From Candidatus Multivoradales bacterium (GTDB taxonomy: Bacteria > Acidobacteriota > Thermoanaerobaculia > Multivoradales > J023): 64,000 nucleotides of DNA. The translations under genes and the position numbers were made by a program. Every line of letters begins with the position of its first letter. Position 1 is the first letter of the stretch. Location: NCBI GenBank assembly GCA_965248925.1, contig CBDFLE010000005.1:992001-1056000 (forward strand). Direction: 5' to 3'. This document shows positions 41,397 through 54,297 of this stretch, piece by piece. The notes under the pieces were generated by a model that did not search any database, was not told the origin of the DNA, and was given only the letters and a program-made list of their open reading frames with translations.

Positions 41397-41978
41397 ATGG
41401 CAACAAGTTCTGGCGAGGTCACGGAGCTGCTCCGGGCGTGGGAGAAGGATCCGGAAGCACTCGATCGGCTACTTCCGCTGGTGATGGAAGAGGTGCGCAC
41501 GCTGGCTCGTAGGGCGCTGTTGGGGGAAGGTCGCGGCTATTCGCTGGAACCCACCGAGCTGCTTAACGAGGTCTATCTGCGTCTGGTTGGCCGCAAGGTC
41601 TACTGGTGGAAGAACCGCGCCCAATTCTTCAGTATCCTGGCCGAGCTGATGCGGCGCATTCTGGTCGATCGAGCCCGCCGCCGGCTGGCCGCCAAGCGCG
41701 GCAGCGGCGCCGAGAAGCTGAGTCTGGATGAAGGTATCTTCGCCGCTGACCAGCCCGACCCACAGCTGATCTTGCTCGACGACGCGCTGCAGCAGCTGAA
41801 GAAGCTGGATCCGATGAAGTACAAGATCGTTTCCCTCAGCTTCTTCGTCGGCCTGAGCCAGAAGGAGACCGCCAAAGAACTCGGCGTGTCGGTCAATACC
41901 GTTGGCCGTCACTGGCAGGCAGCCCGCCTGTGGCTGCAAACCCAGATGTTGCAGAGCGACAATCAGGGCACAAAGTGA
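41397..41978 (+). CDS. ECF-type sigma factor (kinase-associated, TIGR02999-like)
   Basis: EVTELLRAW....ALDRLLPLV, MRRILVDRARRRLAAKRG and region 4 ETAKELGVSVNTV.R.W..AR.WL. Confidence 0.88.
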   Translation: MATSSGEVTELLRAWEKDPEALDRLLPLVMEEVRTLARRALLGEGRGYSLEPTELLNEVYLRLVGRKVYWWKNRAQFFSILAELMRRILVDRARRRLAAKRGSGAEKLSLDEGIFAADQPDPQLILLDDALQQLKKLDPMKYKIVSLSFFVGLSQKETAKELGVSVNTVGRHWQAARLWLQTQMLQSDNQGTK

Positions 41979-44377
41979 GCCAAGACAGTGGCCAGGAGCT
42001 GGATCTCCTTTTCCGGGCCCTTGATGTACCGACTGCAGAAAGAGTCGACTTCCTGCGCCGAGAGTGCCCGGAGGACGCGGCTCTGGCCCAGCGAGTTTTC
42101 GCCATGTTGGCCAGCCAGGACACCGCCAGCCTGATCGACCAGCCCCTCTTCGATATCCACCAGGAAGAGCCCCTGCCGGTCGAGAAGATTGGCTCCTACC
42201 GGCTGCTGAAACGCCTCGGTCGCGGCGGTATGGGTTCAGTCTTTCTCGCCGAGCGCGAAGATTTCGCACAGCGGGTGGCGTTGAAAGTCATCCGCCGCGG
42301 CCTCGATCTGGACGCTGGACTGGTGCGCCGCTTTCACAACGAGCGCCAGATCCTGGCGCGCTTGCAACACAAGAATATCGCTCAGGTCTTCGATGGTGGC
42401 ACCGTCAGCGATCGGCTGCCCTACTTCGTCATGGAGTACGTCGAGGGCGAGCCGATCAATGCCTACTGCTTGCGGCAGCGGCTCGGAATTCCAGAGCGGC
42501 TCGAGCTTTTCCGCCAAGTCTGCGACGCGGTGGGCTACGCGCATCAAAACCTGGTGGTCCATCGCGACCTCAAACCCAGCAACATCTTGATCACCGCTAG
42601 CGGCGAGCCCAAACTGCTCGACTTCGGAGTCGCCAAGCTGCTTGACGAGAGTGTCGCCAACACCCCCCTGGCCACCGTGACCGGGCAGGCGCCAATGACC
42701 CCGCGCTACGCCAGCCCGGAGCAAATCAAAGGCGAATCGATCACCACGGTCGCCGACGTCTACTCGCTCGGAGTGCTGCTCTACGAGCTACTCACCGGCC
42801 TTAGTCCCTACCGGGTCGACACCGACATCGAGCACGATCTGGCGCGCGCGGTCTGCGAGCAAGAGCCAGATCGCCCCAGCACCGCCGCGCGTCGCCGCTC
42901 CAACGAGCACACATTGGTGATCGCCGACCGACTCGACCGCAAACTCAGCGGCGACCTCGACGCCATCGTATTGAAGGCAATCCGCAAAGAGCCTGAGCAG
43001 CGGTATGGCTCGGTCGAGCAGCTGGCGGAGGATATCGGCAGATATCTGGAGGGAATGCCGGTTGAGGCACGGGCTGGGACGTGGGCCTACCGAGCGACAA
43101 GATTCAGCCGCCGGCACCGGATCGGCCTAGCGACCGCCCTTGCCTTCGTCATACTGTCGATCAGCTACGGTCTACACGCCAACTATCTCGCTCGGCAATC
43201 CGAGGAGCAAAAGGAGATTGCCGAGAAGCAGAAGGAAATCGCCGAGAAGCAGAAGGAAAATGCCGAGAGAACGCTTGAGTTCCTGAAATCACTGTTCCTG
43301 GAAGCTTCGCCCGATGCAGTAGCAATATCCAAGCTGTCGGCGATCGACCTGCTGCGCCGAGGCAAGGACAGGGTCCTCAACCAAGAGCTAGCCAGCCACC
43401 AATCCAGAGAGGTGATTGCCGGAGACCTAGGTTCCTTGTTCCGAGAACTTGGTTACTACGATGATTCCCAACAGCTCATGCAGCGCGCCCTAGAACTTGC
43501 ACTTGATAACCATCCTTCTCCCCATCAAGACATTGCAAGAAGACTCAATAACCTCGCTGTGGTCTACCACGAGTTCGACAAATATGACGACGCAGCGAAG
43601 CGCTTCAGAGAAGTCCTGCAGATGAAGGAGGTGCTCAAGCAGACTGCCCAGCAGATCTTCAAAGCGAAGAGCAACCTCGCATCCGCCTTGATGCACGCTG
43701 GGCATCCGCGGCAAGCCGAAATTCTCTTCGAGGAAGTATTGGTGGGCCGCAGAGCGCTCTACAAGAACTCAGAAACTGATCTGAATCTTGCTTCGAGCTA
43801 TCAAAATTCTGCTGCCAACCAACTTCAATTAGGCAATCTTGACCGAGCCCTAGAAAGATCCCAGAGAGCCCTTAGCGCTCGACGCAAGAGCAAGAAACCC
43901 ACATTCGTCGCCGATTCGCTGCACCTCATCGGCAAGATATGGCTCGAAAAAGGCGACAGTTCGCAAGCGAGAATCTCATTCAGTGAGTCGTTTAGTATCC
44001 GTGATATTCATTTGAAGAGCGACCACCGAAAGATCTCTCTCTCCAAGCGCTTTCTCTCAGAGTCCCTTCTTGAAACCGATCTCGATACCGCCGAAGTCCG
44101 CCTCGATCAAGCTATCGCAGCTCTTTCGAAGTCCCCTGATCCGGGCTGGCGCATGGCGGATTTTCTGAGTGTCAAAGGGGAACTCAGATCGCGCCAAGGT
44201 GATCCCGAGGAGGCAGCGATTCTACTACAACAAAGTTACGATCGCCTTCGCGAGATTCGCGGGCCGCAAGTCTGGGTTACCCGACGTGCCAAGGCCCGTC
44301 TGCAGGAGTTCCTACAGGCGGGCCCAAGCGATCAAATGCCCCTCTACCAGGCCGAAGTGTCGACCCGCAGCCCATAG
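41975..44377 (+). CDS. Membrane Ser/Thr protein kinase with C-terminal TPR region
   Basis: Motifs GRGGMGSV, VALK, HRDLKPSN, DFG and YASPEQ; TM segment; TPR-like LNNLA repeats. GTG start overlaps the ECF stop. Confidence 0.9.
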   Translation: MSQDSGQELDLLFRALDVPTAERVDFLRRECPEDAALAQRVFAMLASQDTASLIDQPLFDIHQEEPLPVEKIGSYRLLKRLGRGGMGSVFLAEREDFAQRVALKVIRRGLDLDAGLVRRFHNERQILARLQHKNIAQVFDGGTVSDRLPYFVMEYVEGEPINAYCLRQRLGIPERLELFRQVCDAVGYAHQNLVVHRDLKPSNILITASGEPKLLDFGVAKLLDESVANTPLATVTGQAPMTPRYASPEQIKGESITTVADVYSLGVLLYELLTGLSPYRVDTDIEHDLARAVCEQEPDRPSTAARRRSNEHTLVIADRLDRKLSGDLDAIVLKAIRKEPEQRYGSVEQLAEDIGRYLEGMPVEARAGTWAYRATRFSRRHRIGLATALAFVILSISYGLHANYLARQSEEQKEIAEKQKEIAEKQKENAERTLEFLKSLFLEASPDAVAISKLSAIDLLRRGKDRVLNQELASHQSREVIAGDLGSLFRELGYYDDSQQLMQRALELALDNHPSPHQDIARRLNNLAVVYHEFDKYDDAAKRFREVLQMKEVLKQTAQQIFKAKSNLASALMHAGHPRQAEILFEEVLVGRRALYKNSETDLNLASSYQNSAANQLQLGNLDRALERSQRALSARRKSKKPTFVADSLHLIGKIWLEKGDSSQARISFSESFSIRDIHLKSDHRKISLSKRFLSESLLETDLDTAEVRLDQAIAALSKSPDPGWRMADFLSVKGELRSRQGDPEEAAILLQQSYDRLREIRGPQVWVTRRAKARLQEFLQAGPSDQMPLYQAEVSTRSP
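43202..43268 (+). repeat. 21-bp tandem repeat (~3 copies) encoding a QKEIAEK heptad
   Basis: GCCGAGAAGCAGAAGGAAA at 43220 and 43241, with partial flanking copies. Confidence 0.8.
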
Positions 44378-46096: not shown

Positions 46097-46945
46097 ATGG
46101 AGCTATTCCGCACTCTCGGCTGTCTGCTCGAGACACCGACCCCCGAGACTGACCGCCTCGCTCAGCTACTCGACCTTGGCCCGCCGCCGTCAGCGGCTGA
46201 GCACACGGCGGTTTTTGTGCTCGAACTCTACCCCTATGCTTCGGTCTATCTGGGAGAGGGCGGCAAGCTCGGCGGCGAAGCCCGCGATGCGATCGCCGGC
46301 TTCTGGCGCGTACTGGGTGAAGAGCCACCGAAGGAGCCCGACCACCTGGTCGTTCTGCTGGCGACTTACGCCCGCCTGGCCGAACTCGAGGACCAAGACC
46401 TACGGCACACTGAGCGCTGGCGCCATGCGCGTCTGGCTTTTCTCTGGGAGCACCTGCTGAGCTGGCTGCCGATCTACCTCGACAAGCTGGCGCAGGCCGA
46501 GTTCCCCTTCTATCGCCGCTGGTCCGAAGTGGCCCGACAAGCCTTGAATTCCCAAGCCGACGAGATCGACGCTCCTCCAGCCCTGCCCCTTCACTTGCGC
46601 CGAGCAGCTCAGCTGGCGGATCCCCGGCAGGCCGGTGCCGAAGCGTTTCTCAGAGACCTGCTCAGCCCGGTACAGAGTGGCCTGCTGCTGACCCGAAGCG
46701 ATTTGGCCCGCCTTGGCGAGGAGCTGGATCTGGGTCTGCGGCGGGGCGAGCGCCGCTTTCAGCTCAACGCCCTGCTCGGCCAAGATGGCGCTGGGGTCTT
46801 GGCCTGGCTGGCGGACTACGCCGGCCAGCCAGGCGGGCGATTCCCGGCGCCGGCCAAGGTGATCAAGAACCACTGGCAGCAGCGGCGGCACACTACCGCG
46901 AAGCTCCTCGAAGAGCTCTCCATCGAGCAAGCTCGTTCAGCATAG
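46097..46945 (+). CDS. TorD/DmsD-family redox enzyme maturation chaperone
   Basis: PYASVYL, EPDHL and FL.EHL.SW motifs. Confidence 0.8.
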   Translation: MELFRTLGCLLETPTPETDRLAQLLDLGPPPSAAEHTAVFVLELYPYASVYLGEGGKLGGEARDAIAGFWRVLGEEPPKEPDHLVVLLATYARLAELEDQDLRHTERWRHARLAFLWEHLLSWLPIYLDKLAQAEFPFYRRWSEVARQALNSQADEIDAPPALPLHLRRAAQLADPRQAGAEAFLRDLLSPVQSGLLLTRSDLARLGEELDLGLRRGERRFQLNALLGQDGAGVLAWLADYAGQPGGRFPAPAKVIKNHWQQRRHTTAKLLEELSIEQARSA

Positions 46946-47435
46946 ACCTCGACCAAGAAGGAACCTGAAGAGGCGGTGATCACCCAGACTCGCAGCAGTC
47001 GGAATAGAATCAAGCGCACAGAGTCAAACTCAGATTCGGGTATGGGCGAGATCGGTCAAGAGTATGGACGAGATCTGCATCAGCTATCACTTTGCTTTCC
47101 AATGCAAAGTCTGGGGGAGAAGGGAGCAGGCGTGATGGCGAGATGGCAGGGTTGCAAAAGGGTCGCCTCCCGATAGTGTGACAGGGTAAGGATGATGCCG
47201 GAAGTGAACCCTCAAGCCGGCCGCAGTGACGCCCTACGAGGACGATGCAGACCGGTAGCGACAAACCACCCCTTCGGGTAGCGACGACATCCTTGCTTCA
47301 GTGAAAGGATGGGCCCGTGCTCAGGACGGAGTACGGCAGTCCCGCCTCAAGTAGTCCCGAGTCGCACTCGGCTCTGGGGATTTGGGCTTGCGCTTCGGAC
47401 AGACCGGGATCGGGAGCGAAGGTGAGGTGGTGCCA

Positions 47436-47903
47436 GTGAAACGAGTACAGCAAATCCTAAGAAGCTTGATGAGTTCGACGCCTGACCTCGAAGGCGCCAC
47501 GGTGGTGACTCCGGACGGCCGAGCGTTGGCCTCGACGTTTCCGGCGGGGACCGACCAGGACCGGGTCTCCGCGATGGCGGCGGCCCTGCTCTCGCTCGGT
47601 GAGCGAATCGCTGGCGAACTCGAGCGCGGCGTGTTGGAGCAGATCTACGTCAAAGGAAGCAGTGGCTACACCGTTCTGATGCATGCGGACGGCGAGTGGG
47701 TCTTGGAAGTAGTTACCGGGCCGCTGGCGAGGTTGGGAATGGTACTGCTCGAAATGGAAGAAGCGGTGCGACATCTCAACGAAATGTCCGACCTGGCCAA
47801 GAGCACCCAGGAGATCGTACTCGCCAAAGGTACCCAGGAACTCTCGATACCTGCCACCAATGCCAGCGACACTGCTGGCACCCTATTCGAATCCAGGTAC
47901 TAA
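47436..47903 (+). CDS. Roadblock/LC7 (MglB-like) protein 1
   Basis: GATVVTPDG..LAS, DRVSAMAAALLSLGER and EQIYVKG motifs. Start uncertain. Confidence 0.85.
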   Translation: MKRVQQILRSLMSSTPDLEGATVVTPDGRALASTFPAGTDQDRVSAMAAALLSLGERIAGELERGVLEQIYVKGSSGYTVLMHADGEWVLEVVTGPLARLGMVLLEMEEAVRHLNEMSDLAKSTQEIVLAKGTQELSIPATNASDTAGTLFESRY

Positions 47904-47922
47904 ACGACAGAAAGGAGATTGC

Positions 47923-48291
47923 ATGGCAACGCGAGCAGAAGCGATGCAGCAAACGCTGAAGAATCTGGTAGCCAACACACCGGACCTAGAAGGTGCCGCG
48001 ATGGTCAGCACTGACGGTCTGGTGTTGACCTCGGTCTTGCCGGCGGGGACCGATGAGGACCGGGTCTCCGCGATGGCGGCGGCCCTGCTCTCGCTCGGTG
48101 AACGCACCGCTGGCGAGTTGGAGCGCGGCGAGCTGGAGCAGATCTACGTCAAGGGAGCCAACGGCTATATCGTACTGATGCAGGCCGGCACCGACACGGT
48201 CTTGGAGGCCATCGCCGGACAGTCGGCGAAGCTCGGCATGGTGCTCCTCGAGATGAAGCGAGCAGCCCACGAGCTTGTCAGGATCGTCTAG
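47923..48291 (+). CDS. Roadblock/LC7 (MglB-like) protein 2
   Basis: AAGGAG RBS; VSTDGLVLTS, DRVSAMAAALLSLGER and LGMVLLEM. Confidence 0.9.
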   Translation: MATRAEAMQQTLKNLVANTPDLEGAAMVSTDGLVLTSVLPAGTDEDRVSAMAAALLSLGERTAGELERGELEQIYVKGANGYIVLMQAGTDTVLEAIAGQSAKLGMVLLEMKRAAHELVRIV

Positions 48292-48296
48292 TAGCA

Positions 48297-48722
48297 ATGC
48301 CTTCCTCGGCCGAGCTGCTCAAGGACTGTCTCTTCTCTCTGACCACCCGAGTGCAGGAGATCCGGGCGCTGTCGCTGGTCGACCGCAACGGTCTGCCCCT
48401 GGTCTCTACGCTGGGCACCGGAGCGTTGGAGGAGATGCTGGCGGCGTTCGGCGGCTCGATCTGGACCCAGCTCGACCGCGCGCAACAGGACTTCCAGATG
48501 GGGCCGCTCTATCAGGCACATATCATCGGACGGGACCGGCAGATCTTTGTCACCCCGATAAATCAAGACGCGGCGCTGGTGGCCATGGTTGAGTCCTACG
48601 CCACCGCGGCCACCATCACCATGCATCTACTGGCCCTTTCCCGCACCGTAGCGCAACACCTACCAGAATCACTGGCCGCCAGCGATGAAGCCGTCGCCAA
48701 CTCAGTGAGTCACAAGACCTAG
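48297..48722 (+). CDS. Roadblock/LC7-like protein 3
   Basis: IRALSLVDRNGLPLVST motif and roadblock-type size and pattern. Confidence 0.7.
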   Translation: MPSSAELLKDCLFSLTTRVQEIRALSLVDRNGLPLVSTLGTGALEEMLAAFGGSIWTQLDRAQQDFQMGPLYQAHIIGRDRQIFVTPINQDAALVAMVESYATAATITMHLLALSRTVAQHLPESLAASDEAVANSVSHKT

Positions 48723-48731
48723 GAGAATTCG

Positions 48732-49292
48732 ATGAAGGCGACTCTGGAGCATCTGATCTCGTTGACCGGTCACACGGAGGAGGACTTCGAGATCCTCGGG
48801 CGCCACGCTGCGATCACGCAGCAGTGGGCCGACGACGCCGTGCAGGCCTTTTACGACACCCTATTCGCCTACCCGCCCACCTCGGTAGTCTTCCGCGAGG
48901 GCGAGCGCCCGGAGCGTGAGGCCACCCTGCGCGCCTGGTACCTGGAGGTCACCAGCGGCACAATCCGCGGCGACTTCTGGAACCATCAGTGGATCGTCGG
49001 CCTAGTCCACATCAAGCGCCAGGTCACCAACAGCTTCATGATCTCGATGGTCAGCCGGCTGCAGCTGGTGTTTCTCGAGAAGTGCCTCGCGACGCTCGAT
49101 CAAGCCGCGGCGGAGGCCGTCTTCGGAGCCTTCAAGCGGGTCACCGACATCGTGCTGGGGCTGATCGCAGAGGGTTACCATCAGGGCTACATCGAAGCGG
49201 TGACCGACGTCACTGGCATGAACGCGGCGTTGATCGACCGCATGGCAGACGTAGCGGTCGACAAGCTGCTTACCAAAGCCCGTCAAGGCTGA
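48732..49292 (+). CDS. Stand-alone protoglobin / globin-sensor domain protein
   Basis: G.TEED...L, AFYDTLF (B10 Tyr), LRAWY and VGLVHIKRQV (proximal His); AGGAG RBS. Confidence 0.8.
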   Translation: MKATLEHLISLTGHTEEDFEILGRHAAITQQWADDAVQAFYDTLFAYPPTSVVFREGERPEREATLRAWYLEVTSGTIRGDFWNHQWIVGLVHIKRQVTNSFMISMVSRLQLVFLEKCLATLDQAAAEAVFGAFKRVTDIVLGLIAEGYHQGYIEAVTDVTGMNAALIDRMADVAVDKLLTKARQG

Positions 49293-49310
49293 GCAGGAGC
49301 CTGTACCGAC

Positions 49311-49838
49311 ATGGCGAGAGGACTCGGGCCGCCACCCTGCGGCGGCACCACAGTGCGCGGCAAGGTCGTGATCCTCGGTGCAGCCGAGGCCGGCAAGAGC
49401 ACGCTCATCACCACCCTCTGCCCAAACAGCATGAACCTCCACGTCGACGGCCGGACGGTGGCGATGGACCATGGCATGCTGAGTCGAGGAAGCAGCTGTC
49501 TCTCGTTGGTCGGTGTCCCCGGGCAACAGCGCTTTGCCGCCGTCCGAGATGCTCTCGTCGCCCACGCGCTGGCCGCGGTCTGGGTCCATGCCGCCGGAGC
49601 GGAGACAGATCTGTCGACCACCGAGCTGATCCGCCGGACCGCTCTACCCTATCTGGTGTACGTCAATCTCCATGGTCGCGGAGGAGGAGAGTGGTTGACG
49701 CCGACGGTGCTACGACGCCCGCGCGCGGTGCTCGTCGGCGACCTGCTCGATCCGATGCGTAGCGAGGTGGACACTTTGAAGATGGGAATCTGGAAGCTCG
49801 CTGCCGAGCTTCCGATCGGCGCCGGCAGCTCCTCTTGA
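49311..49838 (+). CDS. Small GTPase, MglA-like (group with TVAMD / GxPGQxRF)
   Basis: G1 GAAEAGKST, G2 TVAMDHG, G3 GVPGQQRF; G4 is atypical (VNLHG). Confidence 0.75.
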   Translation: MARGLGPPPCGGTTVRGKVVILGAAEAGKSTLITTLCPNSMNLHVDGRTVAMDHGMLSRGSSCLSLVGVPGQQRFAAVRDALVAHALAAVWVHAAGAETDLSTTELIRRTALPYLVYVNLHGRGGGEWLTPTVLRRPRAVLVGDLLDPMRSEVDTLKMGIWKLAAELPIGAGSSS

Positions 49839-49906
49839 AGGAATAGAAGACGCCGGGTTGACGATTCGAGCGGTTTGCGATCTTGTCGAGGGAGGGCGAG
49901 GGTGGC

Positions 49907-50311
49907 ATGACTACAACTAATGACATGGTCGCGAGTCTAATGTCCAACATCCCGCAAATCACCTCTTGCGGAGTCTTGGACTTGGAGACCAGCAAGTGGC
50001 GGCGACTGGTGCACGGACGCAGCGACCCGGAGGAGCTTCTCGACTTCGTGGCCCTTTCGGTCAAGAAGATTTTCGGCGGAGATCGGGTCAAGACCATCAA
50101 GACCCTCCTCGATGAGCACTCTACGAACCGGCCGCGCCAAAGAGAGTTCGAGGAAGTCATCCTGCGGTCGACCAACTTCTTACATGTGTTTCTGCGCCTG
50201 CATCATGAGCCTGGCACTGCGCTCTGCGCAGTGGTGTCGGGGGATGTCAAGCTAGGAATCGTCCTCAATCTGATGCGTACCGCCATCGATCGGGCCGCTG
50301 GCCCGCCATGA
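49907..50311 (+). CDS. Divergent roadblock/LC7-like protein 4
   Basis: CGVLDLET, FEEVILRSTNFLHVF and VKLGIVL motifs typical of roadblock-fold partners. Confidence 0.6.
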   Translation: MTTTNDMVASLMSNIPQITSCGVLDLETSKWRRLVHGRSDPEELLDFVALSVKKIFGGDRVKTIKTLLDEHSTNRPRQREFEEVILRSTNFLHVFLRLHHEPGTALCAVVSGDVKLGIVLNLMRTAIDRAAGPP

Positions 50312-50432: not shown

Positions 50433-51698
50433 ATGCCCAGCGCCTCAACCACCTACGACGCCGTCGTCATCGGCGCCGGCCCCGCCGGTTCGACCGCCGC
50501 TACACTGGTGGCGAAGGCCGGCCATCGGGTGCTGCAGCTGGAGCGGGCGAATTTTCCTCGCTTCAAAGTCGGCGAATCACTGATTCCGGCGACTTACGAT
50601 GTGCTCCGCCGGCTCGGCATGTTGCCGCGGCTGCGCGGCGGACGTTTCGTCGAGAAACACAGCGTGCAGTTCTACTCCGGTGATGGCCGCGCCGGTCGGC
50701 CGTTCTACTTTCACGAGACCGACCCCAGTGAGCGCTCGCAAACCTGGCAAGTGCTGCGCAGTGAGTTCGATCAAATGATGTTGGAGAATGCTCGCCAGCA
50801 CGGTGTAGAGGCCCAGGAGGGAGTCGGTGTGCGGCAAGTGCTGTTCGATGAGCAACAGCGGGCGGTGGGGGTGGAGGCGCGGTTCGCCGACGGCGAGCAA
50901 CGGCGATTTAGCGCCCGAGTGGTCATCGACGCCTCCGGACAGCGTTCTCTGCTGGCCCGCAAGCTGGGCCTGCGGGTGACCGACGAACGGCTGAAAATGG
51001 CTTCGATCTTCACCCATTTTGAAGGCGGCCAGCGCGATCCGGGAATCGACGAAGGGGCGACTTTGATCTGTCACAGCGAGGGCAGCAAGTCCTGGCTGTG
51101 GTACATCCCGATGCCGGACAACATGGTCTCGGTCGGCGTGGTCGGGCCGATTCCTCATTTGATCCACGGCCGCCAAGGCAATCCCCAGCAAGTGCTCGAT
51201 GAAGAGATCGCCCGCTGTCCCGGAGTCCAACCGCGGCTCGTCGGCGCCCGCCAGGCGCTCGAGGTCAAGGTGCTGAACGACTTCTCCTACGTCTCGAGCC
51301 AGCTAGCTGGCGACGGCTGGGTGCTCGCTGGCGATGCCTTCGGCTTCCTCGACCCGATGTACTCCACCGGGGTACTGCTGGCCCTCAAATCTGGCGAAAT
51401 GGCCGGCGACGCGGTCGCCGCGGCACTCAGCCAAGGAGATACCTCAGCCGCTCGGCTAGGGGGTTTCGAAGCCACTCTGCGCGGTGGCCTGAACGCCTTT
51501 CGCCGCCTGATCTTCGCCTTCTACTCTCCCAAATTCAGCTTCGGCCGCTTCTTGAAGAGGTTTCCCGAACACCGTCCGCAGGTGGTCGACATCTTGGTCG
51601 GCGATGTCTTCGAACGAGACTTCGAACGCTTCTTCCACGACCTGGAAGGAATGCTCGGCGCGGCCACCAACAGCGACAAAGCGGAGATGGACGCTTGA
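50433..51698 (+). CDS. Flavin-dependent halogenase-like oxidoreductase
   Basis: Motifs GAGPAG, FPRFKVGES, FVEK (position of the catalytic Lys), WLWYIP (WxWxIP) and GDAFGFLDPMYSTG. Confidence 0.8.
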   Translation: MPSASTTYDAVVIGAGPAGSTAATLVAKAGHRVLQLERANFPRFKVGESLIPATYDVLRRLGMLPRLRGGRFVEKHSVQFYSGDGRAGRPFYFHETDPSERSQTWQVLRSEFDQMMLENARQHGVEAQEGVGVRQVLFDEQQRAVGVEARFADGEQRRFSARVVIDASGQRSLLARKLGLRVTDERLKMASIFTHFEGGQRDPGIDEGATLICHSEGSKSWLWYIPMPDNMVSVGVVGPIPHLIHGRQGNPQQVLDEEIARCPGVQPRLVGARQALEVKVLNDFSYVSSQLAGDGWVLAGDAFGFLDPMYSTGVLLALKSGEMAGDAVAAALSQGDTSAARLGGFEATLRGGLNAFRRLIFAFYSPKFSFGRFLKRFPEHRPQVVDILVGDVFERDFERFFHDLEGMLGAATNSDKAEMDA

Positions 51699-53059
51699 GC
51701 AACGCGGCCCCGCAGGCACCACTGAAGATCGCCTTCATCACCGCCGGCGCGGCGGGCATGTACTGCGGCTCCTGCATGCACGACAATACTCTGGCTCGAC
51801 AACTGATGGGCCGCGGCCATGATGTCTCGTTGATGGCCCTCTACACGCCGCTGCGCACCGACGAGGAAAACGTCACCCTCGACCGTGTGTTTTACGGCGC
51901 GATCAATATCTACTTGCAGTCCAAGCTGTCTTTCTTCCGCCACACTCCGCGGCTGATCGATTGGTTGCTCGACCGACCCCGTCTACTAGGTTGGGCGGCC
52001 AAGCTGGGCTCTTCGACCGCTGCCTCGGAACTTGGCGACATCACCTTGGCCACTTTGCAAGGAGCCGACGGCCCGCAAGCTAAGGAACTCGATCGCCTGG
52101 TCGCCTGGTTGCGCGACGACCTACGCCCCGACCTGGTCCACCTCTCGCAGACCCTGATGCTCGGCCTGGCACCGCGCCTGGGCGAGGAACTGGGGGTACC
52201 GATCACTTGCGCGCTGCTCGGCGAGGACATCTTTCTCGATGGCCTGCGCGAGCCCTTTCACTCGCAAGTGCTGGAGATCATGCGCCGCAATGCCCGTCAG
52301 GTGGCGGCCTTTATCGCCCCCTGCCAGTATTTCGCCGACTTGATGGGAGAGCAGCTCGATCTGGATGAGACCAAAATCCACCAGGTGCCCTTGGGGGTCG
52401 ACAACCAGGATTTCAACAGCCCGCCACCGACCCCTCGCCCCGTCGACCGCGTCACTCTCGGCTACCTGGCGCGAATGTGCCCTGAGAAGGGTTTCCACCT
52501 GCTGCTCGACGCCTTCCGCCGGCTGGCCAGCGAGGATCCTCGACTCCGGCTCGAGGTCGCCGGCTACCTCGGCGGCGGTGATCGGGCCTATTTCGAGGAA
52601 CAGCGGCGGCGAGTCGCCGCCTGGGGGCTCGAAGATCGAGTGCGATTTCACGGTGAGGTCGACCGCGCCGGCAAGATCCGCTTGCTGCACAGCCTCGACC
52701 TCTTCTCGGTGCCGTCGGTCTATAGCGAGCCCAAAGGACTGTCAGTTCTTGAAGCGATGGCTGCCGGGGTGCCCGTGGTGGTCCCTGAGCATGGCGCGTT
52801 CCCGGAGATCCTCGGCGCCACCGGCGCCGGTTTGCTAGTCGAACCCGGTTCGGTGGATTCGCTGGTCACTGGACTGCGTCGCCTGATCGCCGATCCAGAT
52901 CAGCGCCGGCACCTGGGGGAACAGGGGCGGCGAGCGGTTGAGCACGGAGCCTATGGCGCTTCAGCGATGGCCGTGGCCACCCTGGACGTCTTCCACCAGG
53001 TGCTTGCCACGGGCGCAACCGAAGTCGAACAGGAACTGAGCCTCGGCGCTACGGGCTGA
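51695..53059 (+). CDS. Glycosyltransferase family 4 with N-terminal CxxC motif
   Basis: ARMCPEKG and EPKGLSVLEAMAAGVPVV; N-terminal GAAGMYCGSCMHD. Confidence 0.85.
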   Translation: MSNAAPQAPLKIAFITAGAAGMYCGSCMHDNTLARQLMGRGHDVSLMALYTPLRTDEENVTLDRVFYGAINIYLQSKLSFFRHTPRLIDWLLDRPRLLGWAAKLGSSTAASELGDITLATLQGADGPQAKELDRLVAWLRDDLRPDLVHLSQTLMLGLAPRLGEELGVPITCALLGEDIFLDGLREPFHSQVLEIMRRNARQVAAFIAPCQYFADLMGEQLDLDETKIHQVPLGVDNQDFNSPPPTPRPVDRVTLGYLARMCPEKGFHLLLDAFRRLASEDPRLRLEVAGYLGGGDRAYFEEQRRRVAAWGLEDRVRFHGEVDRAGKIRLLHSLDLFSVPSVYSEPKGLSVLEAMAAGVPVVVPEHGAFPEILGATGAGLLVEPGSVDSLVTGLRRLIADPDQRRHLGEQGRRAVEHGAYGASAMAVATLDVFHQVLATGATEVEQELSLGATG

Positions 53060-53537: not shown

Positions 53538-53612
53538 AGGAAAACAAGTGCCAGGAGAACAAGTGCTAGGAGAACAAGTGCTAGGAGAACAAGTGCTAGG
53601 AGAACAAGTGCC
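53538..53612 (+). repeat. 15-bp tandem repeat x5 (AGGAGAACAAGTGCT), each unit a Shine-Dalgarno plus GTG
   Basis: Units at 53538, 53553, 53568, 53583 and 53598; the three middle units are identical. Confidence 0.92.
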
Positions 53613-54297
53613 GCCCACGCCGCAGATCTCGCTCAAGGTTTCCAACTTGTTCAAGGACTTCGCCACCGGACAACAGACTGTCGAAGTGCTGCGAGGCATC
53701 ACTCTTGAAATGCGGGCTGGTCAATCGCTCGCCGTCACCGGGCCTTCAGGATCCGGCAAGAGCACTTTGCTGCATTTGATCGGCACCCTCGATGTGCCCA
53801 GCCGCGGCGAGATCACCATCAACGGTGAGAACCCCTTTGCCCTCAGCGAACCGCGGCTGGCGCGCTTCCGCAATCGCCAAATTGGCTTCGTCTTCCAAGA
53901 CCACCACTTGCTGCCACAATACTCAGTGCTGGAAAACGTGCTGGTACCGACCCTGGCCCACGGTTCGCCGGATGGCGACGCCGAGGATCGCGCGCGCCAT
54001 CTACTCGGCCGGGTCGGCTTGGAGCACCGCCTCCTGCATCGGCCAGGGGAGTTGTCCGGCGGCGAGCGCCAGCGAGTGGCGGTGGCGCGGGCCCTGATCC
54101 AACGACCGGCGCTGCTGCTCTGTGACGAACCCACCGGCAGCCTTGATCAACACACCGCCATGATGGTTGGCGATCTGCTCGCCGAATTACACCAGGAGGA
54201 GCAAAACATTCTCATTGTGGTCACCCACAGCCCGGAGTTAGCACACCGCTTCACCCGCCGCTTCGAATTGCGTGAGGGCACATGCGCGCTACTCTGA
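53608..54297 (+). CDS. ABC transporter ATP-binding protein (LolD/MacB-like)
   Basis: Motifs GPSGSGKST, LSGGERQRVA, CDEPTG and VTH. In-frame alternative GTG starts extend back to 53548. Confidence 0.92.
   Translation: MPPTPQISLKVSNLFKDFATGQQTVEVLRGITLEMRAGQSLAVTGPSGSGKSTLLHLIGTLDVPSRGEITINGENPFALSEPRLARFRNRQIGFVFQDHHLLPQYSVLENVLVPTLAHGSPDGDAEDRARHLLGRVGLEHRLLHRPGELSGGERQRVAVARALIQRPALLLCDEPTGSLDQHTAMMVGDLLAELHQEEQNILIVVTHSPELAHRFTRRFELREGTCALL

Follow-up and report, generated by a model that had tools for sequence, protein, structure and literature searches.

Introduction

Small Ras-like GTPases of the MglA family are partnered in bacteria by proteins of the Roadblock/LC7 fold, and one MglA binds a dimer of MglB through the Roadblock domain (PMC6785124). 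The family has a G3 motif without the Asp, which reads TVPGQ in Group 1, together with an Arg-Thr pair in switch I, and GTPGQ in Groups 2-5, together with Thr-Thr; Groups 2 and 3 deviate at G4 too and yet hydrolyse GTP (PMC4316618). The coupling of a haem globin to a Roadblock/LC7 domain is known from HGbRL of Methylacidiphilum infernorum, a fusion protein whose globin domain was solved in 2015 and whose signalling role is still unknown; its authors proposed that the globin moves in response to its ligand and passes this movement on to the Roadblock domain, and noted an MglB/MglA-like gene pair elsewhere in that genome (PMC4476040). Here we analyse a stretch of 64,000 nucleotides (the window) from a Candidatus Multivoradales bacterium of the Acidobacteriota (assembly GCA_965248925.1, contig CBDFLE010000005.1, positions 992,001 to 1,056,000 of the forward strand), which carries an operon for a single-domain globin, a small GTPase, three Roadblock proteins and a fourth protein assigned to the Roadblock fold by structure prediction. 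We read this operon as a split globin-coupled sensor with a Roadblock/GTPase switch as its transmitter, and give this reading a probability of about 0.55. The original prediction for the locus held that no globin-coupled case had been characterised and so overlooked HGbRL. For the operon form, with separate globin, Roadblock and GTPase genes, our literature searches returned no published description, HGbRL being the closest system in print.

A compact six-gene operon

Six close-packed genes occupy positions 47436-50311 of the + strand of the window, in the order Rb1, Rb2, Rb3, globin, GTPase and P6. The gaps between them measure, in order, 19, 5, 9, 18 and 44-68 bases, and 121 bases separate P6 from the next gene downstream. 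The features are as follows (aa, amino acids; AF2, AlphaFold2; ORF, open reading frame):

46946..47435, strand., presumed promoter region, non-coding: 490 bases upstream of the operon with no long + strand ORF
47436..47903, + strand, Rb1, Roadblock/LC7 protein, 155 aa (Pfam Robl_LC7 3.3e-15, 56 bits)
47923..48291, + strand, Rb2, Roadblock/LC7 protein, 122 aa (Pfam Robl_LC7 9e-20, 70.7 bits)
48297..48722, + strand, Rb3, divergent Roadblock/LC7 protein, 141 aa (Pfam Robl_LC7 5.5e-8, 32.9 bits)
48732..49292, + strand, S-family single-domain globin, of sensor type by its modelled fold, 186 aa (Pfam Protoglobin 3.6e-18, 66.5 bits)
49311..49838, + strand, small P-loop GTPase of an unnamed subfamily, 175 aa (weak Pfam MMR_HSR1/Ras)
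49907..50311, + strand, P6, predicted Roadblock-fold protein, 134 aa (AF2, Foldseek and hhalign; no Pfam model for the family)

The Pfam cut-offs were 23 bits for Robl_LC7 (PF03259), 25 bits for Protoglobin (PF11563) and 21.9 bits for MMR_HSR1. Rb1 could also start at the TTG at 47382 and P6 at the TTG at 49883, which would give a P6 of 142 aa; the purine-rich stretch GGTGAGGTGG lies immediately 5' of the GTG at 47436, the Rb1 start. Since the whole 7.98-Mb genome has just four Pfam Robl_LC7 genes and three of them are in this operon, the arrangement is not one of chance. Pfam and NCBIfam searches found no kinase, receiver or other output domain in the six genes. The anatomy given by the original prediction was therefore borne out: a compact operon of six genes, three recognisable Roadblock proteins, a protoglobin-family protein with a proximal His, a divergent fourth Roadblock, and no kinase or other output domain.

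The globin resembles the sensor domains of globin-coupled sensors

Globins of the S-family (Pfam Protoglobin) are divided into protoglobins, single-domain sensor globins and the domains of globin-coupled sensors (PMC4648194, PMC7475203). The window globin has the marks of this family, namely a profile match, a 3-on-3 globin fold, a proximal His at F8 (H93) and a Tyr at B10 (Y41). Its family comprises 53 members found, of 111-228 residues, the window's own protein included. H93 and Y41 are invariant in 21 aligned homologues and are both kept in 87 of 89 family rows, one row lacking H93 and one lacking Y41. We infer from the conserved His and Tyr that the protein binds haem. Among the globins of loci with Roadblocks only, one row has Ser in place of the B10 Tyr and one has Arg in place of the proximal His.

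By sequence, the nearest entries in the PDB are Tlr1989 of Thermosynechococcus (8h17, 3.5e-5), the sensor domain of AfGcHK (5ohe, 0.0014) and GsGCS (2w31, 0.0075). The AF2 model of the globin, with a predicted local distance difference test (pLDDT) of 95, has one extra helix after helix H, at residues 165-185. It superposes on the sensor domains of AfGcHK, Tlr1989, HemAT and GsGCS with template modelling (TM) scores of 0.82-0.88 and a root-mean-square deviation (rmsd) of 1.7-2.2 (for AfGcHK, TM 0.87 and rmsd 1.8), and fits the protoglobin of M. acetivorans (MaPgb) more poorly (TM 0.64-0.70, rmsd 3.0-3.8). A strict protoglobin of the M. acetivorans type was rejected because the fold is nearer to the domains of globin-coupled sensors, and so was a chimeric globin-coupled sensor, since the protein has 186 aa and one helix after helix H, with no fused transmitter domain. 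The length-based scheme of PMC7475203 would file a globin of about 190 aa as Pgb. The protein is an S-family single-domain globin and, judged by its modelled fold, a sensor domain without a transmitter.

Predicted contact of the globin with the Rb2 dimer

We co-folded two copies of Rb2 (alignment of 15 rows) and one globin (15 rows, drawn from those same loci), the globin being the partner that was scored. The complex scored 0.71 (runs of 0.73, 0.69 and 0.71) and three controls scored 0.00-0.02, the best of them 0.02; in the calibration of the tool, the mark is reached by 116 of 157 solved complexes and by 2 of 215 mismatched pairs. At least 92% of the contacts are common to the runs, and the partner has a pLDDT of at least 89. 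The predicted interface is formed, on the globin side, by residues 160-174 at the start of the extra helix, where the contact residues G162, L167, R170 and M171 are conserved in the family. On the Rb2 side, one copy contributes residues 30-33 (Thr-Asp-Gly-Leu) and 46-61 (helix alpha-2), and the second copy residues 47-54.

Roadblocks encoded next to the globin in 14 loci are 32-55% identical to Rb2 and make up its orthogroup; they have nine invariant columns, and five of these (G32, L33, A50, A53 and R61) fall inside the predicted interface. In a Thermus structure of 2011, the surface by which MglB contacts MglA is reportedly its helical one. For the Asp of the Roadblock Asp-Gly pair, a study of 2014 predicted a position within 5 Å of MglA (PMC4316618). 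Taken as a model, the co-fold supports binding of the globin to an Rb2 dimer.

The globin-Roadblock association recurs across phyla

A pattern search built from an alignment of nine globins, with one genome per species, gave 55 genome loci. The Roadblocks and GTPases in these loci were found with hidden Markov models (HMMs) iterated from the window proteins; single-sequence phmmer missed most of them. Roadblock genes lie beside the globin in 20 of the 55 loci, and 14 have an MglA-family GTPase as well. The 20 linked loci carry about six phylum-level labels: Chloroflexota (nine loci), Methylococcales/Methylothermaceae/Methylohalobius (three), KSB1 and allies (three), Calditrichaeota (two), and one each for Thiobacillus, a Bacteroidetes metagenome-assembled genome and Kiritimatiellia. 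The proteobacterial loci among them are gamma- and betaproteobacterial. On a tree of 89 globins the linkage is scattered and requires at least nine gains or losses. The association of the globin with Roadblocks is conserved, and the observation is real. Among metagenome loci, 3 of 42 are linked, many being too short to judge and at least four repeating genome loci; the closest of them to the window (L061, 59% identity) has a Roadblock, an Rb3-like gene and the globin in the gene order of the window.

The iterated HMMs gave no Roadblock match in the 35 unlinked genome loci, nor did a Pfam scan of 103 of their 165 flanking ORFs (from 30 of the 35 loci). The unlinked contexts include cofD/cofC in Anaerolineales, a HAD hydrolase with UPF0047 in Aquificales and GT2 genes in Chloroflexaceae, among others. 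In the Anaerolineales loci L031, L037, L038 and L041 the globin is found between or beside cofD and cofC, genes of F420 biosynthesis, sometimes accompanied by a pyridoxamine-oxidase-like gene.

The Rb2-type Roadblock is the constant element of the linked loci, whereas the GTPase subtype varies. Written as switch I pair, G3 and G4, the GTPases read RT/TVPGQ/NKQD in Chloroflexota, that is, a Group 1 MglA, TT/GTPGQ/TQMD in Methylococcales and Thiobacillus, and TT/GTPGQ/NKQD in KSB1. The Chloroflexota operons encode a REC-Roadblock-HATPase protein, MglA, two Roadblocks, a PATAN(DUF4388)-Roadblock protein and two globins; they resemble the window in having four Roadblock-domain proteins and one MglA, but with two globins. 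The second globin of the Chloroflexota locus L022 (4241-4891) is divergent, lies directly upstream of the main one and matches Pfam Protoglobin at 5e-30, and equivalents are found in L017, L024, L027, L028, L034 and L035. Four loci (L016, L036, L046 and L056) have a Roadblock and the globin without a GTPase within 5 kb. One of these, the Kiritimatiellia locus L056 (1882-5564), encodes a hemerythrin, a Ser/Thr kinase, a double Roadblock of 409 aa and the globin. The domains of an input kind beside the globin in linked loci are hemerythrin, PAS, Tll0287-like and REC. Two further arrangements were observed. In Calditrichaeota (L036 2010-4199 and L046 2790-5062), one Roadblock is followed by three tandem globins, and in KSB1-type loci (L057 6157-8530 and L026 6531-8868) a B12-binding protein, a URO-D/MtaA-like methyltransferase and DUF1638 are encoded between the Roadblocks and the GTPase.

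Closer to the window, five related genomes encode a GTPase of the window subfamily (E 1e-50 to 1e-60) together with one or two Roadblocks, and none of the five has the globin; one of them, G031, has a P6-like gene too. A relative of the same family (G020, L115 5025-7431, - strand) encodes, in a row, a PATAN/DUF4388 protein, an ATP_bind_1/Arf-like GTPase, a Roadblock and a globin of 182 aa, where the GTPase differs from the window subfamily and the globin is a more distant member of the protoglobin family. Since the five relatives are globin-less and G020 has a distinct globin, the core of the module appears to be the GTPase with its Roadblocks, which globins joined more than once.

Roadblock proteins of the operon

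Rb1 is paralogous to Rb2, at 62% identity, and has a tail of some 35 aa at its C-terminus. In the alignment both proteins keep the Asp-Gly pair that is a trait of the MglB-type partners of MglA Groups 2-5, and the Gly of this pair in Rb2, G32, is invariant across the orthogroup; Asn-Gly replaces the pair in Rb3. The best PDB matches of the Rb2 profile are a Thorarchaeota Roadblock (7f8m, 6.5e-36) and CvnB5 (3leq, 2e-18), the match to Myxococcus MglB being weaker (7.7e-7).

P6 has no Pfam match, and none was found for its family in the 31 relatives scanned; neither the single sequence nor the family matched a PDB sequence, and a word-index search returned only P6 itself. A full HMMER search found 64 relatives. 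The AF2 model built on them (pLDDT 92, predicted TM score 0.84) has the element order alpha-beta-beta-alpha-beta-beta-beta-alpha, which is the Roadblock order plus a C-terminal helix. The top Foldseek matches of this model are all Roadblock folds, the best being Roadblock3 of an Asgard archaeon (TM 0.75/0.83), and include the Streptomyces Roadblock 3kye, LAMTOR2/3 and MglB. Further, hhalign joins the P6 family to the Rb2 family with 92.8% probability (E 4e-7). P6 is thus confirmed by its predicted fold as a fourth Roadblock protein, from a family that lacks a Pfam model. No equivalent of the Asp-Gly pair could be aligned in it, and no member of its family was found among 97 globin loci. In other organisms, P6-like domains are found at the C-terminal end of Ser/Thr kinases (3 of the 16 long relatives that were scanned: P0124, P0125 and P0143) and of dual-specificity phosphatases (another 3 of the 16: P0134, P0137 and P0146), which points to a family of signalling adaptors.

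An unusual GTPase of the MglA family

Searches with the GTPase found 50 homologues of 143-205 residues. Its Pfam match is weak (MMR_HSR1 8.5e-5, 23.1 bits), Ras (0.0015) and Roc remaining under their cut-offs, as did NCBIfam small_GTP (TIGR00231, 29.1 bits). Motifs were taken from an alignment of 23 sequences. The P-loop is GAAEAGKST in the window protein and GxxEAGKST across the 23; switch I reads GRTVAMDHG, with R48 and T49 invariant; and G3 reads VGVPGQxRF, without the Asp, its G, P, G and Q being invariant. The GVPGQ of the window protein is a hybrid of the published Group 1 and Groups 2-5 forms, and it conforms to the xxPGQ pattern of the family. The GTPase is also a coupled one in the published sense of an MglB/Roadblock within four genes, with a Roadblock gene next to it downstream and others two to four genes away on the upstream side. 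The HMM of its own family matches the Group 2-5-type GTPases of other loci at 1e-9 to 2e-12, as against about 1e-3 for Group 1 MglA. A Group 1 MglA was rejected for this protein, since its Arg-Thr pair comes with GVPGQ and with a G4 of which only an Asn is left, and since a canonical MglA/MglB pair lies elsewhere in the genome.

The unusual GTPase occurs once in the genome. A canonical Group 1 MglA (TVPGQ, NKRD, Arg-Thr) with an adjacent MglB-type Roadblock is encoded elsewhere in the same genome:

G000 contig 6, L060 3274-3858 and 3973-4563, - strand, canonical MglA/MglB pair, assigned by motifs

A divergently oriented gene for a GGDEF protein lies beside this pair. The GTPase family of the window aligns with this canonical MglA in hhalign at 79.5% probability (E 1.5e-5). 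Since the canonical pair sits elsewhere, the module of the window would be a second, separate GTPase system.

Weighing the split-sensor reading

Several observations weigh against the reading of the operon as a split globin-coupled sensor. The globin has unrelated neighbours in 35 of the 55 genome loci and in most metagenome loci. Of 61 related genomes the present one alone has it, with weak matches in longer frames in three more, and the lineage thus does not carry the module as a stable trait. At the level of whole genomes, the joint presence of globin and Rb2-type genes was rejected as evidence: 55 of 61 genomes of one unlinked order have an Rb2-type gene, so that finding one elsewhere in five of five unlinked genomes tested, and in all eight genomes of that order with a strong globin match, is uninformative. 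The C-terminal helix motif of the globin is equally conserved in globins unlinked to Roadblocks and may serve another purpose, such as dimerisation. The co-fold used alignments of our own making and a 2+1 composition, both of which differ from the calibration of the tool; helices on Roadblock dimers are familiar from Ragulator, so that part of the score may be memory, and the conservation of the Rb2 face could come from GTPase binding alone. As for the GTPase, its G4 is a lone Asn (N119) with no Lys and no Asp, unlike the guanine-specificity motif [NT]KxD, and a PDB profile search is led by IF2, the Asgard Arf-like proteins 8oun/8oum and Rab23, with Der and Rab11 also matched and MglA absent from the top 60 matches. 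Since NKxD is missing and MglA is not the nearest solved structure, the nucleotide and the regulation of this GTPase are uncertain. Pfam and NCBIfam gave no evident output target in the operon or its flanks. The claims of the original prediction that depend on these points stood in part. 'MglA-like' holds at the level of motifs (G3 without Asp, Arg-Thr in switch I) and fails on nearest structures; the conserved adjacency, for which a neighbourhood survey had been proposed as the check, is present in 20 loci and missing in the other 35; the functional link of globin with Roadblock and GTPase is supported by the linked neighbourhoods and the co-fold; and control of the switch by the haem ligand state stays a hypothesis.

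Four other explanations were considered. The globin could act directly on the GTPase, as an exchange factor, a dissociation inhibitor or an effector-like partner, with the Roadblocks as the usual GTPase-activating proteins (GAPs) and the Rb2 interface as an artefact of modelling. The two genes are adjacent here, 18 bases apart, the predicted Rb2 surface would be expected to be conserved for GTPase binding anyway, and the co-fold job was unlike those of the calibration. We nevertheless consider this unlikely, since the four loci named above keep Roadblock and globin with no GTPase within 5 kb, Rb2-type genes are the nearest and most conserved neighbour (32-55% identity across phyla), the linked GTPases are of four subtypes while the Roadblock orthogroup is constant, and the co-fold controls stayed at 0.00-0.02. 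The wiring could also be reversed, the GTPase/Roadblock switch controlling the placement or sequestration of a globin that is itself the effector, carrying O2 or detoxifying NO. The operon does encode no other effector, and the globin family also occurs by itself in a wide range of metabolic contexts, which would suit an enzyme or carrier; its fold, however, is nearest to the sensor domains of globin-coupled sensors and not to flavohaemoglobin-type or carrier globins, and hemerythrin, PAS, Tll0287-like and REC domains beside the globin in linked loci fit an input role, so that we give this wiring a small chance.

A chance just as small goes to co-expression only, in which a housekeeping haem protein would have come to lie next to Roadblock genes on several occasions, unconnected to them both physically and in signalling. 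The 35 unlinked loci, the single globin-bearing genome among the 61 relatives and a C-terminal helix conserved regardless of linkage all agree with it. Against it, Roadblock genes are rare (four Pfam matches in the genome, none in the unlinked loci), twenty independent adjacencies under about six phylum-level labels, with at least nine changes on the tree, are hard to obtain by chance, and the co-fold passed its controls. Finally, we regard as improbable a multi-Roadblock scaffold in which the globin serves as a constitutive building block, with haem for stability only and a module that senses something else or nothing. Four Roadblock-fold proteins do hint at a larger scaffold, and in a tandem-globin locus one copy is without Tyr B10 and another without His F8 (1 of 10 rows each). 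Apart from these, H93 and Y41 do not vary (87 of 89 rows), and since the core module of GTPase and Roadblocks exists without the globin in five relatives, the globin would not be needed for assembly.

Proposed mechanism and significance

As a split globin-coupled sensor, the operon would work as follows. The globin would bind haem via His93, with Tyr41 in the distal pocket, and would sense O2, NO, CO or the redox state of the iron, having no fused transmitter of its own. Its conserved C-terminal helix would dock on the Rb2 dimer at the Asp-Gly loop and helix alpha-2, presumably in the modelled stoichiometry of one globin to two Rb2, and so on the face that MglB-type Roadblocks are thought to show to their GTPase. 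The availability of this helix would depend on the haem, through its ligand or redox state, and would in turn gate the action of the Roadblocks (Rb1/Rb2, perhaps with Rb3/P6 as a second pair) on the GTPase, as putative GAP or exchange factor. In this presumed direction of signalling the GTPase would be the output, with targets encoded elsewhere.

A more far-reaching version is tentative, and we think it rather doubtful as a whole. Here the haem-state-dependent helix would plug into the GTPase-binding face of the Roadblock, competing with or re-orienting an atypical MglA-family NTPase that has its own arginine finger and has lost the guanine-specificity residues; the four Roadblock-folds would form two dimers as a Ragulator-like platform, and, across several phyla, the plug-in would have been taken up by at least four GTPase subtypes as well as by Ser/Thr kinases and histidine kinases. 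If true, prokaryotic signalling would have in it an input module of general use that has gone unrecognised until now.

The window adds an interface predicted down to its residues, a Roadblock protein that is the fourth of its operon and whose family is without a Pfam model, and a GTPase subfamily in which the combination of motifs is unusual. The signal inputs to bacterial Ras-like GTPase/Roadblock switches outside Myxococcus are largely unknown, and single-domain sensor globins have no known partners; a conserved physical link between the two would account for both. If the split-sensor reading is true, haem-based gas or redox sensing joins the inputs of prokaryotic small GTPases, and a small soluble system of two to six proteins of 120-190 residues becomes available for the regulation of Roadblock dimers, a matter of interest to work on MglB, conservons and Ragulator. 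With individual residues named in the predicted interface, the idea is directly testable.

Flanking sequences

No sigma-70 consensus or terminator-like site was found in the 490-base upstream stretch, nor in or around the operon; the upstream stretch has no Rfam match at E<=0.1, and there is no Rfam family for the operon. A gene for a TorD/DmsD-like chaperone (46097-46945, Nitrate_red_del 2.3e-12) precedes the operon by those 490 bases on the same strand, with no molybdoenzyme gene seen in the stretch examined. Four DNA sequencing runs, all from one study, contain the stretch, and no RNA run containing it was listed. Directly downstream, positions 50433-53059 hold a flavin-dependent halogenase/geranylgeranyl-reductase-like gene and a GT4 glycosyltransferase gene, overlapping by 4 bases. 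Further along, an ABC-type ATPase ORF (53548-54297) starts with about four copies of the pentapeptide GEQVL, encoded by a short tandem DNA repeat whose overlapping frames are repetitive too. Upstream, an ORF of 815 aa (41930-44377) resembles a Ser/Thr protein kinase by reading (HRDLKPSN is visible); it includes a short repeat, EKQKEIA, and a long tail of helical repeats.

Comparison with known systems

The operon shares parts with five described systems. With MglA/MglB of Myxococcus xanthus and Thermus thermophilus (PMC6785124, PMC4316618) it has in common a Ras-like GTPase without the G3 Asp (xVPGQ), with an Arg beside the switch-I Thr and encoded beside Roadblocks; in MglA/MglB, one GTPase binds a Roadblock dimer. 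The window GTPase differs in having GVPGQ and not TVPGQ, in lacking NKxD and in being about 20 residues shorter, and the locus has four Roadblock-fold proteins and a putative haem sensor in place of the Frz/RomR inputs. MglA Groups 2-5, which include the actinobacterial conservons CvnA-D (PMC4316618, PMC13343842), offer a likeness in sensor-fed Roadblock/small-GTPase operons with the GTPase as the thought output. The switch-I TVAMD(H/Y)G and the PGQ of the window GTPase resemble the Group 2-5-type GTPases of linked loci, and Rb2 is close to CvnB5 (2e-18); the differences are an Arg, not Thr, before the switch-I Thr and a soluble haem globin as the candidate sensor. A conservon proper was rejected, since no CvnA-type histidine kinase (HATPase/HisKA) and no CvnC (DUF742) were found in the six genes or their immediate flanks. 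As for the number of Roadblocks, the statement of the original prediction that multi-Roadblock MglA operons are catalogued holds for 1:2 systems (PMC4316618); no 1:4 system was seen in the sections of that paper that we covered.

The globin-coupled sensors AfGcHK, HemAT and GsGCS share with the window globin the fold (TM 0.84-0.88), the proximal His and the B10 Tyr, and differ in that the window globin has no fused transmitter and ends in a single helix after helix H. The resemblance to Ragulator-Rag in the original prediction stands for the combination of several Roadblock-fold proteins with a small GTPase, P6 matching LAMTOR2/3 in its modelled structure, and falls short in that the GTPase is a single G domain of 175 aa with no C-terminal Roadblock domain of the Rag type, and one GTPase instead of a heterodimer; no LAMTOR1-like wrapping protein is known, no search aimed at one having been made, and the resemblance is an analogy only. 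HGbRL (PMC4476040), as described there, is a single polypeptide with a flavohaemoglobin-related globin, confined to one genus and with no GTPase in its operon, whereas the window encodes a separate S-family globin, probably a sensor, with a predicted docking helix, together with four Roadblock-fold proteins and a GTPase.

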